Source: an uncultured Clostridia bacterium (GTDB taxonomy: Bacteria > Bacillota > Clostridia > Christensenellales > UBA1242). Taken from it: a stretch of 64,000 bases of DNA. Below, one piece after another: positions 1,100 through 58,076 of this stretch. Below the pieces are notes generated by a model. It worked only from the letters and a program-made list of their open reading frames with translations. It had not been told where the DNA came from and ran no database searches. The stretch is from assembly GCA_944383335.1 (NCBI GenBank), contig CALWPD010000003.1:3498-67497 (forward strand). The letters run 5' to 3'. Made by a program: the position numbers and the translations under genes. Each line of letters begins with the position of its first letter. Within the stretch, counting starts at the first letter, position 1.

Positions 1100-1227
1100 A
1101 ATCTAGCGTGTCTGCCCATCGTCAAAACCTGCGCCAACGGCCTAAAATTGCCAAGGCAATTTGTGAGGCTTTTTGCTTGGTTTTGCCTCTCCCCAAAAAG
1201 TTTCCATAGGTACTTTATTGGGGGCCC
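1100..1227 (-). repeat. About 130-nt structured repeat element, copy 1 (inverted relative to copy at 50302-50431)
   Basis: The reverse complement aligns by eye with 50302-50431: about 38/42 identical over the first block, looser after. Both carry hairpins CCAA(T)AAAGT...ACTTTTTGG and AAATTGCC/GGCAATTT. It lies just 3' of tRNA-Leu on the same strand. Confidence 0.6.
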
Positions 1228-1258
1228 CGTGAAACGGCAGCCACATTATTCTTATTAT

Positions 1259-10328: not shown

Positions 10329-10353
10329 CTTCACATAGTTGTGAGGTTTTTTT
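10328..10353 (+). terminator. Rho-independent terminator after alaS
   Basis: Stem ACTTCACA/TGTGAGGT, loop TAGT, then a T-run. Confidence 0.75.
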
Positions 10354-10412
10354 CTTAAACATTGGTTTTTTTACACGGATATGTTAATATATTAGTCAGT
10401 AGAGAGTGGATT

Positions 10413-48887: not shown

Positions 48888-49085
48888 TTATTTATTTTCT
48901 TCATTTAGTTTTTTTAAAACAAAGTCCAAGTCAAGGCCGTGTGCCATGCAGGCCTCTTCAAGTGTTTCCATTTGACTAAGTGGACATGTGAAACAGTGCA
49001 TACCAAAGCCTGCCAAAACATCTAGCAAATCATCATTGTAGTTTGCAATGTCAAGTATTGTCCAATCTTTTGTTATTTCTTCCAT
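48888..49085 (-). CDS. DUF1858 (hybrid-cluster-protein-associated redox disulfide) small protein
   Basis: GMHCFTCPLSQMETLEEACMAHGLD pattern, 65 aa, RBS AAAGGAG. Confidence 0.72.
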   Translation of the reverse strand: MEEITKDWTILDIANYNDDLLDVLAGFGMHCFTCPLSQMETLEEACMAHGLDLDFVLKKLNEENK

Positions 49086-49147
49086 ATTTTTTCTCCTTTT
49101 TTAATGATTATTTGTTTATATAAATTTTGTGTCTTTATTCATAAAAT

Positions 49148-49311
49148 GACATTCTTTATGTCATCCCAAGCCATGCCTTAATGCGTCGGCTTTTTATGTC
49201 ATTCTGAGACGGCCGTCAACACATCGACCTTTTTCGTCATTCTGAGCGAAGCGAAGAATCTCAACTTTATACTGTCATTCCGAGTAGTGCGGCATGTCAG
49301 AGCAACCGGTT
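49148..49311 (+). repeat. Phased array of four 38-nt units, each opening with GTCAT(T/C)C(T/C)(G/A)AG
   Basis: Unit starts at 49160, 49198, 49236 and 49274, exactly 38 nt apart, with a partial GACATTC at 49148. Unit 3 is the canonical hairpin GTCATTCTGAGCGAAGCGAAGAATCTC. Units 1 and 2 end in T5. Confidence 0.8.
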
Positions 49312-49323
49312 GGGTGGTGGGCA

Positions 49324-49917
49324 TTAACTTATTGTTTCATCAAGAAATGTTGCCATATTATCAGCAATATGAGTCAAAAACGCATTTGGATATTTGTAAT
49401 AAATATCATTCAAACTAATTCCGCCTTTAACTCGCATGTCATACTCTCCCATATGCCAGTTGATACACATCGCTTCTTCTCTGGTTAGTCGAATAAAACC
49501 ATTTAAGATATACACAGATTTTTCACCATGACCATAGGGTAATTTGTCCTGTGTTGTATAATATGGTACTTGCACCCAAACCCCATTTTGTTTAACATTT
49601 TTGGTGTCCACAACATATGTATCAACTTTACAAATATCATGAAACAATGCCACAATAGTTGCACTTTCAAGCGAAAAATATTGTTGCCATTGTTCGCCAT
49701 ATTGCATTTTTAAAAGTTTAACAAGTCTTTCAAAAACATTAAGGGAATGTTTACAAAGCCCACCAGCGCAATTTGAGTGATATCTTGTTGATGCTGGTGC
49801 TACAAAAAAGTCAGTTTTTTGTAAATATTCAATAAGTGTATTAATACCTTCACGTTTTATGTTGTCTTTAACCAAACTTAAAAAAATATTTTTGTTGTCT
49901 TCAATAACATTATCCAT
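49324..49917 (-). CDS. HD-domain hydrolase (YhaM-like HD domain, no OB fold)
   Basis: STRYHSNCAGGLCKHSLNV and ALFHDICK (H...HD). Start taken at MDNVIEDNK (49917) with RBS GGAGAA. The upstream extension in the track is repeat-rich and probably non-coding. Confidence 0.72.
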   Translation of the reverse strand: MDNVIEDNKNIFLSLVKDNIKREGINTLIEYLQKTDFFVAPASTRYHSNCAGGLCKHSLNVFERLVKLLKMQYGEQWQQYFSLESATIVALFHDICKVDTYVVDTKNVKQNGVWVQVPYYTTQDKLPYGHGEKSVYILNGFIRLTREEAMCINWHMGEYDMRVKGGISLNDIYYKYPNAFLTHIADNMATFLDETIS

Positions 49918-49934
49918 TAATTTTCTCCGAACAC

Positions 49935-49963
49935 ATTTTAGCATAAAAACAATCAATAAACAA
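49935..49963 (-). promoter_or_regulatory. Candidate promoter of the HD-hydrolase gene
   Basis: Minus strand TTGTTT-17 nt-TAAAAT with a TG extension, about 17 nt before the ATG. Confidence 0.45.
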
Positions 49964-50143
49964 CATTTTGGCATATAAATAATACATATGGAAAATAATA
50001 ATGTGGAAAATATAATATCGCTTGCAACAATTTTTTCCACATCACTTTCGAAAAACAGTACAAAAGAACAACTGTTAGAATATAAAATATTTTTTCAAAC
50101 TGTAACAAATAATTTAAATTCAATACTCTCAAGCAAAAAGTAA

Positions 50144-50300
50144 GAGATTTTTCACTGACGCCACTTTTCGTCTTCTTGAGCGTTTCAGTCTGTCATTTTG
50201 AGTTTGAATTTCGTCATTTTGAGTGTGTATTCCGTCATTCTGGGCGTTTTAGCCTGTCATTCTGAGCCCGCTCCAACGCGTCGACCCACGAAGAATCTCA
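50144..50300 (+). repeat. Tandem 21-22-nt array of the GTCATTYTGAG family (five units) plus one inverted partial copy
   Basis: Unit starts at 50170, 50192, 50213, 50234 and 50256 (spacing 22, 21, 21, 22). An inverted partial copy GAGATTTTTCACTGAC lies at 50144-50159. The last unit is a long form, GTCATTCTGAG-22 nt-CGAAGAATCTC. Confidence 0.8.
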
Positions 50301-50301
50301 T

Positions 50302-50431
50302 GGGCACCAAAAAGTACCTACGGAAACTTTTTGGCGAGAGGAGAAACGGAGCGTAAAGTAAAAATTTGCGAATAGCAAATTGAAGCCCTAAGCGACAGTT
50401 TTGACGAGAGACGGAGCCGCAGAGCTCACGA
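50302..50431 (+). repeat. About 130-nt structured repeat element, copy 2
   Basis: Aligns with the reverse complement of 1100-1227. Hairpins CCAAAAAGT/ACTTTTTGG and AATTTGC/GCAAATT. Followed by another CGAAGAATCT half-site (50429-50438). Confidence 0.6.
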
Positions 50432-50437
50432 AGAATC

Positions 50438-51355
50438 TTATTTTTTTAATCGCAAATCGCTATTCTCAACATTGATAACAAGTGAAGATGCTTGGCTTAA
50501 AAGTCTTGAAAACACTCTGTCGCCATAAAAGTCTTGAATTTGCTGTAAGGATAGGTTAGTAGATATGACCGTTTTTTTATTGTTTCTCATTCTCTCAGAA
50601 AGCACATTATATATCCCTTCAATCGTAACATTTTTTAATATAGGTTCTGTTCCAAGGTCATCAATAAAAAGGTAATCGGGTTCCATTAACATATGCAAAT
50701 ATTGACCCTTAGTTTCATCAAAAGTTGTGTGATATTTTAATAAATTTTGATTAAGCTCAAAAGCGGAAGTAAAGTATACAAGTACTTCTTTATTAATAAG
50801 GTCATTTGCCATACATTCCATTACATATGTTTTGCCAGCGCCGGTTTTACCAATCAAAAGCACATTATTATAGGGGTTTTTCTTATCACACCAGTTTTTT
50901 AAGATTTCATATAATTTTTGTGTTTTTTTGGGGTCATCAAAGATTTTAAAATCGCAATTTTCGAAACTTTTTTTGTCCTTGCTAAGTCCGCTTTTTTCAA
51001 ATAAAATTAAATTAATTTCGCGTTTTAGACAAGAACATATCTCACCATTAACATAGCCTGTATCATTACATTTTGCACAAGTGTAGTGTGGTGAAATGGC
51101 TTTTTTGTCAATTTCTAATTTTTTCAAAATGTCATCTTGAATTTTAAGAAGATTTGTTAGGTCATATTTTGGCTTTTCCCCATAAACTTCAGATTTAGCA
51201 TTTTGAATTTCTGCTTGTTTAATTTCTTTAAAATTCTTTTTAAATTCTTCATTTGCCATCGCTTTTTCAAAAAAACTGTATGCCAGTGCTTCAGCATTTA
51301 CACGCCTTGCTTTGATTTTGTTTAGCGCTGATTCAATTATTTGTTTGTTTAACAT
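50438..51355 (-). CDS. dnaI: Helicase loader DnaI/DnaC-like AAA+ protein
   Basis: N-terminal Cys cluster CAKCNDTGYVNGEICSC, Walker A GKTGAGKTY and Walker B LFIDDLGTE. Confidence 0.8.
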   Translation of the reverse strand: MLNKQIIESALNKIKARRVNAEALAYSFFEKAMANEEFKKNFKEIKQAEIQNAKSEVYGEKPKYDLTNLLKIQDDILKKLEIDKKAISPHYTCAKCNDTGYVNGEICSCLKREINLILFEKSGLSKDKKSFENCDFKIFDDPKKTQKLYEILKNWCDKKNPYNNVLLIGKTGAGKTYVMECMANDLINKEVLVYFTSAFELNQNLLKYHTTFDETKGQYLHMLMEPDYLFIDDLGTEPILKNVTIEGIYNVLSERMRNNKKTVISTNLSLQQIQDFYGDRVFSRLLSQASSLVINVENSDLRLKK

Positions 51356-51357
51356 AG

Positions 51358-52800
51358 TTATATCTCCACTTCATCAAGATTTGTAAACAGCGAATTTATT
51401 TCTGCTGGTGTGTATTCATGGTTGTCATAGTTTCTTTTAGGTGAAACATCTTTTACTTGTTTTGGAGAATTGTTTTTTGCTTGTTCTATGGTTTTTATAC
51501 CATTCTGATTCCATGAAAGTATAAGTTTGTTTGCAAATGCCATTGCTTTTGGTTTGTTTTTTGCAATTTCACAGGCATAATCAATAAGATCCTGACCAAT
51601 GTTTAGTTTTGTCCAATTAGAATAAATTTCACGATCTATATTGTTCACATTTCTATCATTTCCAAGTTTTTGCAAAATTTGTTTAATTTTTTCTTCGGTG
51701 TCTAAAATCTCTTTAAAGTATTCGTCCAAAGAACTTGTGGTAACAATTCCAAGTTTAAAAAATTTTAAAATTTGCTTGTCCATATATTCAAGCGTACGAA
51801 CTGAGTTTTTAAAACAGTAGTTACTTATGGTTAGTAAAGTGTCATCGTCAAAACCCATATTCTCCCAAACGCTTACATAATTTTCAACAACAGGTTCAAC
51901 ATTTTCGTAATACACGCCTAGATTTTTACATATATTTTTTGCAAGTTCATAAAGCCTTGTTTTTGTGTTTTCATACTGTTCAATATCCAAAATATCAAAA
52001 AGACGCATTGAAAAATATTTTTCAAAAATAGCATCCAAATATCTAAAATTAACTGAATTTTTTGATTTTTTCTGTAATTTTGCCACATAATTTATAACAT
52101 TTGGTAAAAATCCCATATCTAGCCACTTTTTGTAAAGGTCTTTTTCAAAAGTGTCAAGTGCGCGTTTAATTCCCATACTTTTTGCAACGATGGCAATACT
52201 TTCACTATCTTTTTGATAACCAAGCAGTTTTTCTTCCATTGCCTTGGCTGTGGTTATGCCTTCTTGTGCCCAATTTTTTGCAACTGTAATTATGTAAGCA
52301 TATCCCACGTTATCACCTTTAAGGTCAACGCAATATTTGATTATCATAATTAGCGCACTTGGTTCAATTTTTAAACTTTCCATAAGAGCATAATATTCAT
52401 AGTATTCATTAGGAGTTATCATTCTGCCCGTTATAATCTCTTGTGCTTGCAAATTGAATGAGTTATATTTTCCGTCTTTAATTTTTGGATGTTTAATGTT
52501 TACATTTTTAACAGGCAAAAACCTTACTTCATAAGGAATTGTATCCAAGATTTGCACGAGACCTTTGTCCTGCCAATACACGAATGCACTTTCTATGTCT
52601 TCATGCGACATATTTAAGGTTTTTGAAAATTCTTCAATGGAGTTATGTATTGGACTTGCCACACTACAAGCAAAAAGTCCATACAAATAGACCTTTACAC
52701 ATTCCGCTGGGGCAGATGGCATAAATGAAGTGATGAACAAATTGTCCACCGTCGTCTGATTATCAACAATTAATTGTGATGAAAAACTACAGAAACTCAT
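51358..52800 (-). CDS. Replication initiation/membrane attachment protein (Bacillus DnaB-like, DnaD-domain)
   Basis: About 480 aa with repeated DnaD-like segments (YWQDKGLV..., AKNWAQEGITT, ILSWNQNGIKTIEQA). The stop is 2 nt from the dnaI ATG. Start at 52800 with RBS GAGG. Confidence 0.7.
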   Translation of the reverse strand: MSFCSFSSQLIVDNQTTVDNLFITSFMPSAPAECVKVYLYGLFACSVASPIHNSIEEFSKTLNMSHEDIESAFVYWQDKGLVQILDTIPYEVRFLPVKNVNIKHPKIKDGKYNSFNLQAQEIITGRMITPNEYYEYYALMESLKIEPSALIMIIKYCVDLKGDNVGYAYIITVAKNWAQEGITTAKAMEEKLLGYQKDSESIAIVAKSMGIKRALDTFEKDLYKKWLDMGFLPNVINYVAKLQKKSKNSVNFRYLDAIFEKYFSMRLFDILDIEQYENTKTRLYELAKNICKNLGVYYENVEPVVENYVSVWENMGFDDDTLLTISNYCFKNSVRTLEYMDKQILKFFKLGIVTTSSLDEYFKEILDTEEKIKQILQKLGNDRNVNNIDREIYSNWTKLNIGQDLIDYACEIAKNKPKAMAFANKLILSWNQNGIKTIEQAKNNSPKQVKDVSPKRNYDNHEYTPAEINSLFTNLDEVEI

Positions 52801-52933
52801 ATTAACCTCGTGGCTAACTATAACACAAAATTTTGATTTTATCAACAATAGGTTAATCATTTTATTATGAATCTTAAATGTGTCTATTCATAGTTTTGTT
52901 CTTGCGACATAGATATATTTTAGTGAGGGAAAT

Positions 52934-54437: not shown

Positions 54438-54468
54438 GGACATCAAAGGTCCACTCACGAAAAATCTC
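54438..54468 (+). repeat. Degenerate copy of the hairpin repeat family (long-form right arm CCACTCACGAAAAATCTC)
   Basis: The right half resembles CCCACGAAGAATCTC at 50286-50300. The left half is diverged (GGACATCAAAGG). Confidence 0.35.
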
Positions 54469-58042: not shown

Positions 58043-58076
58043 GTCATTTCGAGCGTCAGCGAGAAATCTCTTTTTT
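58043..58076 (+). repeat. Hairpin repeat copy (GTCATTTCGAGCGTCAGCGAGAAATCTC) followed by T6; probably doubles as the acpS terminator
   Basis: Stem ATTTC/GAAAT with inner CG-TCAG-CG, and a T-run at 58071-58076. Confidence 0.75.

Follow-up and report, generated by a model that had tools for sequence, protein, structure and literature searches.

In this uncultured Clostridia bacterium, the tandem array downstream of dnaI very probably belongs to a BIME-like mosaic in which small, dispersed hairpin repeats have clustered, and does not represent an origin element. The window (the whole 64-kb stretch of DNA that was analysed) represents ordinary core chromosome, with spo0A, tRNA synthetases and tig-clpP-clpX present, and the array falls inside the 520-nt gap between the start of a conserved HD-like gene (49917) and the stop codon of a dnaI-like gene. 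The genes and the conserved block around it are as follows:

51358-52860, minus strand: gene with a DnaB_2 domain (PF07261, 1.6e-37)
50438-51355, minus strand: dnaI-like AAA+ gene (PF01695, 1.4e-17), with its stop codon at 50438-50440
49918-50140: promoter/leader of the HD-like gene, highly conserved in relatives, unlike the repeat region
49324-49917, minus strand: conserved HD-like gene, 197 aa, without a Pfam match

The 197-aa protein incorporates an HD-like motif (RYHS..., LFHDICK), with sub-threshold similarity only to HDIG or MobH-relaxase proteins. Its gene is syntenic in relatives and has repeat clusters on both flanks. A 52-aa open reading frame within the gap (50198-50356) is regarded as spurious.

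Structure of the array and its hairpin element

The initial annotation had described five head-to-tail units starting at 50170, 50192, 50213, 50234 and 50256 (spacings of 22, 21, 21 and 22 nt), and these were re-found at the same positions. The motif GTCATTYTGRG is matched exactly at six positions of the 64-kb window (0.18 expected), a number reached in 0/100 shuffles. All six lie on the plus strand, either in the 520-nt gap or in the neighbouring gap at 49140-49320, on the other side of the HD-like gene. Tandem Repeats Finder reports a repeat of period 21 at 50192-50239 (score 75). The array is confirmed as real and non-random, and it is composed of the following parts:

50144-50159, minus strand: decayed inverted hairpin copy, reading GTCAGTGAAAAATCTC, with its 5' arm and loop lost
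50170-50191, plus strand: head-only half-unit 1, with the degenerate head GTCTTCTTGAG and an 11-nt spacer
50192-50212, plus strand: head-only half-unit 2, with the head GTCATTTTGAG and a 10-nt spacer
50213-50233, plus strand: head-only half-unit 3, with the same head as half-unit 2
50234-50255, plus strand: head-only half-unit 4, with the head GTCATTCTGGG and an 11-nt spacer
50256-50299, plus strand: complete long-loop hairpin element, with the head GTCATTCTGAG, comprising the GTC tag, the 5' arm ATTCTGAG, a 22-nt loop, the 3' arm CGAAGAAT, C and the tail TC

The inverted partial copy, which had also been noted previously, is real and is homologous to a full inverted element (GTCATTTCAAGCGTTAGCGAGAAATCTC) in one of two relatives (L123). 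The fifth unit is indeed longer than the others, but it is not a unit expanded by an insert, as had been thought. It is a complete hairpin element, the only one in the array, with the long loop CCCGCTCCAACGCGTCGACCCA followed by the 3' arm and tail CGAAGAATCTC. This long-loop subtype recurs at a different locus (10339-10385) in the second relative (L124). The first four units lack a 3' arm and, on DNA folding, have no fold of their own. Units 2 and 3 share 86 % identity, while units 1 and 2 together share 78 % identity with units 4 and 5 over 37 nt, the latter likeness indicating, at the level of sequence, duplication of a block. The array has therefore grown at least partly by local duplication. 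A CRISPR-like reading was ruled out by the 21-nt units, the 11-nt conserved cores and the absence of cas genes.

The head represents the 5' tag and 5' arm of an element of approximately 27 nt, with the consensus (C/T)GTC-ATTCT-GA-GC-loop-GC-GA-AGAAT-CTC. After an unpaired (C/T)GTC tag come a 5-bp variable stem, tandem G.A/A.G mismatches and a G-C clamp. A loop, which may be short or long, separates these from the complementary arm, and an invariant C with a short tail closes the element. The stem can be written as ATTCTGAGC/GCGAAGAAT, two non-Watson-Crick G.A positions included. Loops are 3 nt in length (most commonly GAA, GCA, GGA or GTA), or 5 nt if the innermost C-G pair is assigned to the loop; long-loop subtypes are also present, and the tail is CTC or CCC in the elements examined. 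The tag is CGTC at the heads 49236, 50170, 50213 and 50234, and TGTC at those at 49198, 49274, 50192, 50256 and 58043. Beyond the array, the following copies are found in the window:

49160-49311, plus strand: sister cluster between the HD-like gene and a DUF1858 gene, with heads at 49160, 49198, 49236 and 49274 (38-nt spacing)
49236-49262, plus strand: canonical complete hairpin, GTC-ATTCT-GA-GC-GAA-GC-GA-AGAAT-CTC
54456-54468, plus strand: tail-only fragment, CACGAAAAATCTC
58043-58070, plus strand: solitary complete element, GTCATTTCGAGCGTCAGCGAGAAATCTC, with the compensated stem ATTTC/GAAAT

The window has three full and at least ten partial copies over four intergenic sites, and the 3' arm motif CGAAGAATCTC has seven matches with at most one mismatch, against 0.44 expected. 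Two stem versions, ATTCT/AGAAT and ATTTC/GAAAT, coexist within it. Among non-redundant instances on viral contigs, the stem dinucleotides are complementary in 135/139 against 72.6 expected, with a search pattern that was free at two stem positions per side and did not impose complementarity; the invariance of GTCA in the 149 viral instances, by comparison, is built into the pattern. Since the DNA folds of single elements are weak and no better than those of shuffled sequences, it is this covariation which supports the hairpin structure.

Every head in the window is on the plus strand, whichever way the flanking genes point, and in the relatives 11/13 heads (L124) and 8/10 heads (L123) are found on the equivalent strand. 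The orientation is the same at approximately seven independent intergenic loci. As the strand concerned has a positive GC skew and carries most genes, the strand with the tags would serve as the template for lagging-strand synthesis.

Variation among relatives and distribution of the family

Two uncultured Clostridia MAGs (L123 and L124; DnaI 85 % identical) were the only relatives in the genome collection. Both retain the gene order dnaB2-dnaI-HD-DUF1858, and the 3' end of dnaI and the promoter/leader of the HD-like gene align with those of the window near base for base. Between these conserved flanks lies a variable segment, which contains no repeat in L124, measures approximately 110 nt in L123 and approximately 300 nt in the window. 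At the array site, L123 has one full element, one extra head and one full inverted element. The array site is hypervariable among the relatives. Repeats occupy the sister gap between the HD-like and DUF1858 genes in the window and in both relatives, with different structures, while the sister cluster at 49160-49311 is identical in an independent sample (L125). The loci of the two relatives (4.5-12.9 kb) carry 10-13 heads over at least five intergenic sites, and head arrays closing with a full hairpin are also located upstream of a non-replication gene (DUF6273) in both.

The promoter block of the HD-like gene, near-invariant in the two relatives, includes an inverted repeat (ATGTGGAAAATAT / ATTTTTTCCACAT) at 50001-50042, which is probably an operator. 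Each of its arms holds the DnaA-box-like sequence TTTTCCACA, and a 15-nt tandem repeat (AAATAATAATATGGA, 2.8 copies, 49977-50018) overlaps it. Contigs of this organism from independent Logan assemblies, in which the DnaI and HD proteins are identical, all terminate within the repeat region or at its margin, at the following window coordinates:

Contig L001: ends at approximately 50278
Contig L002: ends at approximately 50372
Contig L125: starts at approximately 50039

Such breaks are consistent with repeat-induced breaks or with breaks due to population heterogeneity.

A second dispersed repeat, unrelated to the hairpin element, adds to the mosaic:

50302-50426, plus strand: second repeat of approximately 125 nt with two hairpins, bracketed by a duplicated 15-nt 3' arm
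50427-50441, plus strand: second copy of the 3' arm and tail, CACGAAGAATCTTAT, overlapping the dnaI stop codon at 50438-50440
1120-1235, minus strand: further copy of the second repeat in the window
1770-1885 in L124: further copy of the second repeat

The three copies (approximately 115-125 nt) share 78 % mean identity, and their predicted fold consists of 11-bp and 7-bp hairpins closed by an AAAACC/GGTTTT helix, with two compensatory pairs. Searches for this repeat gave no match in Rfam and none in the viral-contig scan. The duplicated arms give the second repeat the look of an insertion within the 3' arm of such an element. Adjacent to the copy near tRNA-Leu(CAG) (1259-1343), the sequence GGCAGACACGCTAGATT occurs on the minus strand at 1100-1116 as well as at 1314-1330, and duplicates nucleotides ~9-25 of the tRNA. 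This duplication suggests a tRNA-linked integration scar or a tRNA-derived end of the second repeat.

The hairpin element itself is ubiquitous across bacteria and phages. At least 120 stretches of viral contigs match the pattern GTCATTYYGAGC-N2-8-GCGARRAATC, and at least 120 metagenome stretches, from contigs which range in GC content from 0.30 to 0.70, contain the 25-mer GTCATTCTGAGCGAAGCGAAGAATC exactly. Inverted partners peak at 60-89 nt downstream (63 among 290 elements). Arrays of heads spaced 17-32 nt apart are likewise a feature of the family as a whole: 53 were counted over 1.78 Mb of loci, where shuffles gave 0.4. At least three heads are present in 11/53 of these arrays, with a maximum of seven at a spacing of 24 nt, and the five heads in the window place its array among the longest seen. 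Most arrays terminate in a complete hairpin, among the examples listed. The architecture is polar: an extra head is located upstream of 31/274 elements, whereas an extra tail lies downstream of only 9/274. Nested insertion, which would give the order head head ... tail tail, was rejected, extra downstream tails not being enriched. A full-text literature search with the repeat sequence and its translations returned chance primer matches only.

Alternative readings and formation of the array

Among the alternatives, a 3'-UTR module which would terminate transcription of the dnaB-dnaI operon or stabilise the 3' end of its mRNA, as has been proposed for REP/BIME sequences, is unlikely, and would be compatible with the repeat-cluster explanation. 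Elements start right at the stop codons of dnaI and of the HD-like gene in both the window and L123. The minus-strand RNA has AAUUUGC..GCAAAUU followed by UUUUU, as well as an 11-bp hairpin, and a T-run follows the element at 58043. Published REPs are, furthermore, mainly found downstream of coding regions. However, the terminator scan called no terminator here, the fold of the whole region is no better than that of shuffles on either strand (z -1.0, -0.5), and L124 has no elements at the array site. The terminator-like hairpins, moreover, are part of the second repeat and occur only in the window's copy of it.

The two-hairpin fold of the second repeat, conserved with two compensatory pairs among three copies, could also point to a small RNA gene or a cis-regulatory RNA in the gap. 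The head array is unstructured, though, and the region is missing in L124, an Rfam search of 49050-50500 gave no match even at E<=1, and Rfam at its gathering thresholds found tRNAs only; this alternative is quite improbable.

The initial annotation had compared the array to iterons, in which phased double-stranded sites would bind an initiator or helicase loader (DnaB_2/DnaD-like or DnaI) and mark an origin or control element. In its favour are the five direct repeats at 21-22 nt, or about two helical turns, the adjoining DnaB_2 and dnaI genes, and the AT-rich stretch and DnaA-box-like 9-mers (TTTTCCACA at 50002 and 50033) within 200 nt. The iterons of pPS10, RK2, P1 and Vibrio chromosome 2 are likewise tandem direct repeats of approximately 21-22 bp. 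DnaB_2 and DnaI are, however, primosome/loader proteins and not iteron-binding Rep proteins, and no Rep-family domain was seen among the 25 of 78 Pfam families listed for the window's open reading frames; dnaA was not found in the window among the same families. There are only two DnaA-like boxes nearby, each with one mismatch, while TTWTNCACA occurs 23 times in the window, and the GC skew is positive across the window (the cumulative skew rises), dipping just locally where genes lie on the minus strand. Family periods vary between 18 and 31 nt, with a mode of 24, and helical phasing is thus not a constrained property. Two signs that speak against iterons were looked for computationally, namely a ubiquitous distribution of the repeat and its absence in a close relative, and both were seen. 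Each unit corresponds to one half of a ubiquitous hairpin element, the family of which is spread over hundreds of unrelated contigs. At the orthologous site L124 lacks the array and L123 has a rebuilt version, while the AT-rich block next to it, together with its inverted repeat, has been conserved as the promoter of the HD-like gene. Because the array is a pile-up of a widespread hairpin family and is missing or rebuilt in close relatives, it very probably does not serve the binding of a replication initiator. Compared with known iterons, it is without an adjacent Rep gene, conservation or an origin signature, and its unit is half of a dispersed hairpin. The iteron reading is accordingly highly improbable, and the alternative which the same annotation had put forward, a local pile-up of the hairpin family seen at 49148-49311, is the one which the evidence supports.

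It is similarly most improbable that the heads are subterminal transposase-binding repeats, like the 22-bp TnsB sites of Tn7-like elements, and mark where a mobile element ends, for despite the ~22-bp period, the frequent TGT start and the polar stacking beside a terminal structure, there is no transposase or cargo, the variable segment spans only ~300 nt between syntenic genes, and the arrays close in a hairpin which is not an element terminus and stand single, without a partner end.

In a mosaic cluster of dispersed hairpin repeats, the four copies of the 5' half (tag, 5' arm and ~10 nt) would have been made at least partly by local tandem duplication. These half-units are stacked immediately upstream of one complete element, the 3' arm of which was apparently invaded by a second, 125-nt repeat, and a decayed inverted copy lies on the far side. 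The element is probably of the same kind as the Neisseria NTS/dRS3 and Ssn-related motifs. Its hairpins would form in single-stranded DNA and could provide sites for small single-domain GIY-YIG Ssn nucleases. As selfish or semi-domesticated DNA, the elements would spread to intergenic sites which tolerate them, in this case directly behind the dnaI stop codon, and decay there; any influence on the 3' end of the dnaB-dnaI transcript would be incidental. On this explanation, the array has no bearing on replication biology, representing neither a second origin nor a control array for helicase loading. It exemplifies a class of false positives, in which half-repeats of a dispersed hairpin family, arranged in tandem, mimic iterons.

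A more speculative and rather doubtful proposal is that the one-sided layout, [tag + 5' arm + ~10 nt]n followed by the hairpin, is a footprint of the processing or propagation of the family and not of random decay. Repeated Ssn-type cleavage of single-stranded DNA just 5' of the tag could be followed by template-switch repair which re-copies the 5' half. Alternatively, the half-sites might be alternative pairing partners for the single 3' arm, for which the split half-site cleavage reported in PMC11893778 may be compared. If true, the array would be a natural substrate for studying how CGTC-REP/SRM elements are disseminated, and the SRM variant which the published pattern misses would be the dominant form in environmental bacteria and phages, Clostridia included. 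The polar half-unit arrays (53 vs 0.4 expected) are not described in the available parts of PMC3733652 and PMC11893778. They are a modest curiosity which may bear on the multiplication of hairpin elements.

Comparison with known repeat families and the nuclease link

The NTS of Neisseria (CGTCATTCCCGCGMAVGCGGGAATCYRG; CGTCATTCCCGCG..CGCGGGAATC) and the SRM hairpins are bound and cut by Ssn nucleases, small GIY-YIG proteins which act on single-stranded DNA only and the genes of which are flanked by NTS/SRM (Chenal et al. 2025, Nat Commun 16:2388; PMC11893778). In that article, the three nucleotides 5' of the palindrome are reported to govern cleavage of the NTS, the C right after it to be critical for binding, and split half-sites to support cleavage by Ssn. 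The present element resembles the NTS/SRM in its frame CGTCATTC...GAATC, in the GTC 5' of the palindrome and the C directly 3' of it in all full copies of the window and relatives, and in the clustering of 20-50-nt hairpins in intergenic regions. The published SRM search pattern, given in PMC11893778 as HGTCWYN(0-2)YYVSBRHN(0-5)WNVSBRGN(0-2)RNCYNB, has no match in the window; the NTS control passes, while the three full elements fail because the tandem G.A occupies positions which require S. The pattern has only 13 matches in ~1.1 Mb of loci which hold 149 instances of the tandem-G.A variant. This abundant variant, whose exact 25-mer recurs in hosts with GC contents of 30-70 %, is thus invisible to the published SRM pattern.

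Small single-domain GIY-YIG genes flanked by the element occur on metagenome contigs, as they do for NTS/SRM. Among the 120 metagenome loci listed, three have a GIY-YIG gene (105-111 aa; PF01541, 1e-10 to 1e-15) beside the exact 25-mer, at a distance of at most 200 nt or overlapping it. A tblastn search with approximate query sequences found only four GIY-YIG genes in 681 kb of metagenome loci, 3/4 of which adjoin the exact 25-mer. Their best relative in the PDB is UPF0213 BH0048 (E 1.4e-3). The genes which run at their 3' ends into the hairpin, giving C-termini such as ...DSSLRSE, are:

L129, 574-1071: GIY-YIG gene
L143, 174-700: GIY-YIG gene
L149, 686-1022: GIY-YIG gene

In L143 an inverted pair of elements is also located directly upstream of the gene. 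Judged from sequence, the layout in these loci appears to be like NTS-ssn-NTS, for the tandem-G.A variant. No GIY-YIG gene was seen in the 64-kb window, among the 25 of 78 Pfam families listed, and tblastn with approximate queries found none in the window, the loci of L123 and L124 or the viral loci. Similarly, a regular-expression search found no GIY-YIG open reading frames near the 149 viral-contig instances, and the 850 open reading frames neighbouring viral instances clustered into phage structural families and spurious frames only. Because neither the window nor the loci of the relatives yielded a GIY-YIG gene in these searches, the Ssn link in this organism is one which we infer.

The CGTC-tagged REPs, which include dRS3 of Neisseria and RPE-4/RPE-6 of Rickettsia, have a CGTC/TGTC (or CCTC) tag, stems of 8-9 starting with AT, a 4-5-nt loop and a 3-nt unpaired tail with the consensus CCA, and have no dedicated transposase (Di Nocera, De Gregorio & Rocco 2013, BMC Genomics 14:522; PMC3733652). 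That article describes head-to-tail grouping as negligible for the CGTC families and names as hosts only Proteobacteria, Chlorobi, Bacteroidetes, Spirochaetes and Thermotogae, not Firmicutes. The present element shares with them the unpaired 5' CGTC/TGTC tag and the AT-starting stem of 8-9, and its short loop and 3-nt unpaired tail would be comparable to theirs. It is also extragenic and dispersed, often directly 3' of genes, without an associated transposase gene. Inverted dimers with the tags outside predominate in both (here 63 partners at +60 to +89 among 290 elements). It differs from the REPs of that description in the conserved tandem G.A/A.G of the stem, in the tail CTC in place of CCA, in its Clostridia host and in the common polar head-only tandem arrays, an architecture which stands outside the published description because head-to-tail grouping is called negligible there. 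By its sequence features, and compared with the published description, the element fits the CGTC-tagged REP superfamily. The CGTC-REP/Ssn-motif family would thereby be extended to a lineage of spore-forming Clostridia.

The REP/BIME sequences and REPINs with RAYT of the gamma-proteobacteria are also comparable. The tag is CGTC here as against GTAG in those REPs, and no Y1/RAYT gene is associated with the element. In common with them, however, the present elements are short hairpins with a tag, form mosaics together with other repeats, are hypervariable from one relative to the next and may fold in single-stranded DNA. REP-type single-stranded DNA transposition is linked to the lagging-strand template, and the orientation shared by seven independent loci here would resemble, by analogy, transposition of this kind.
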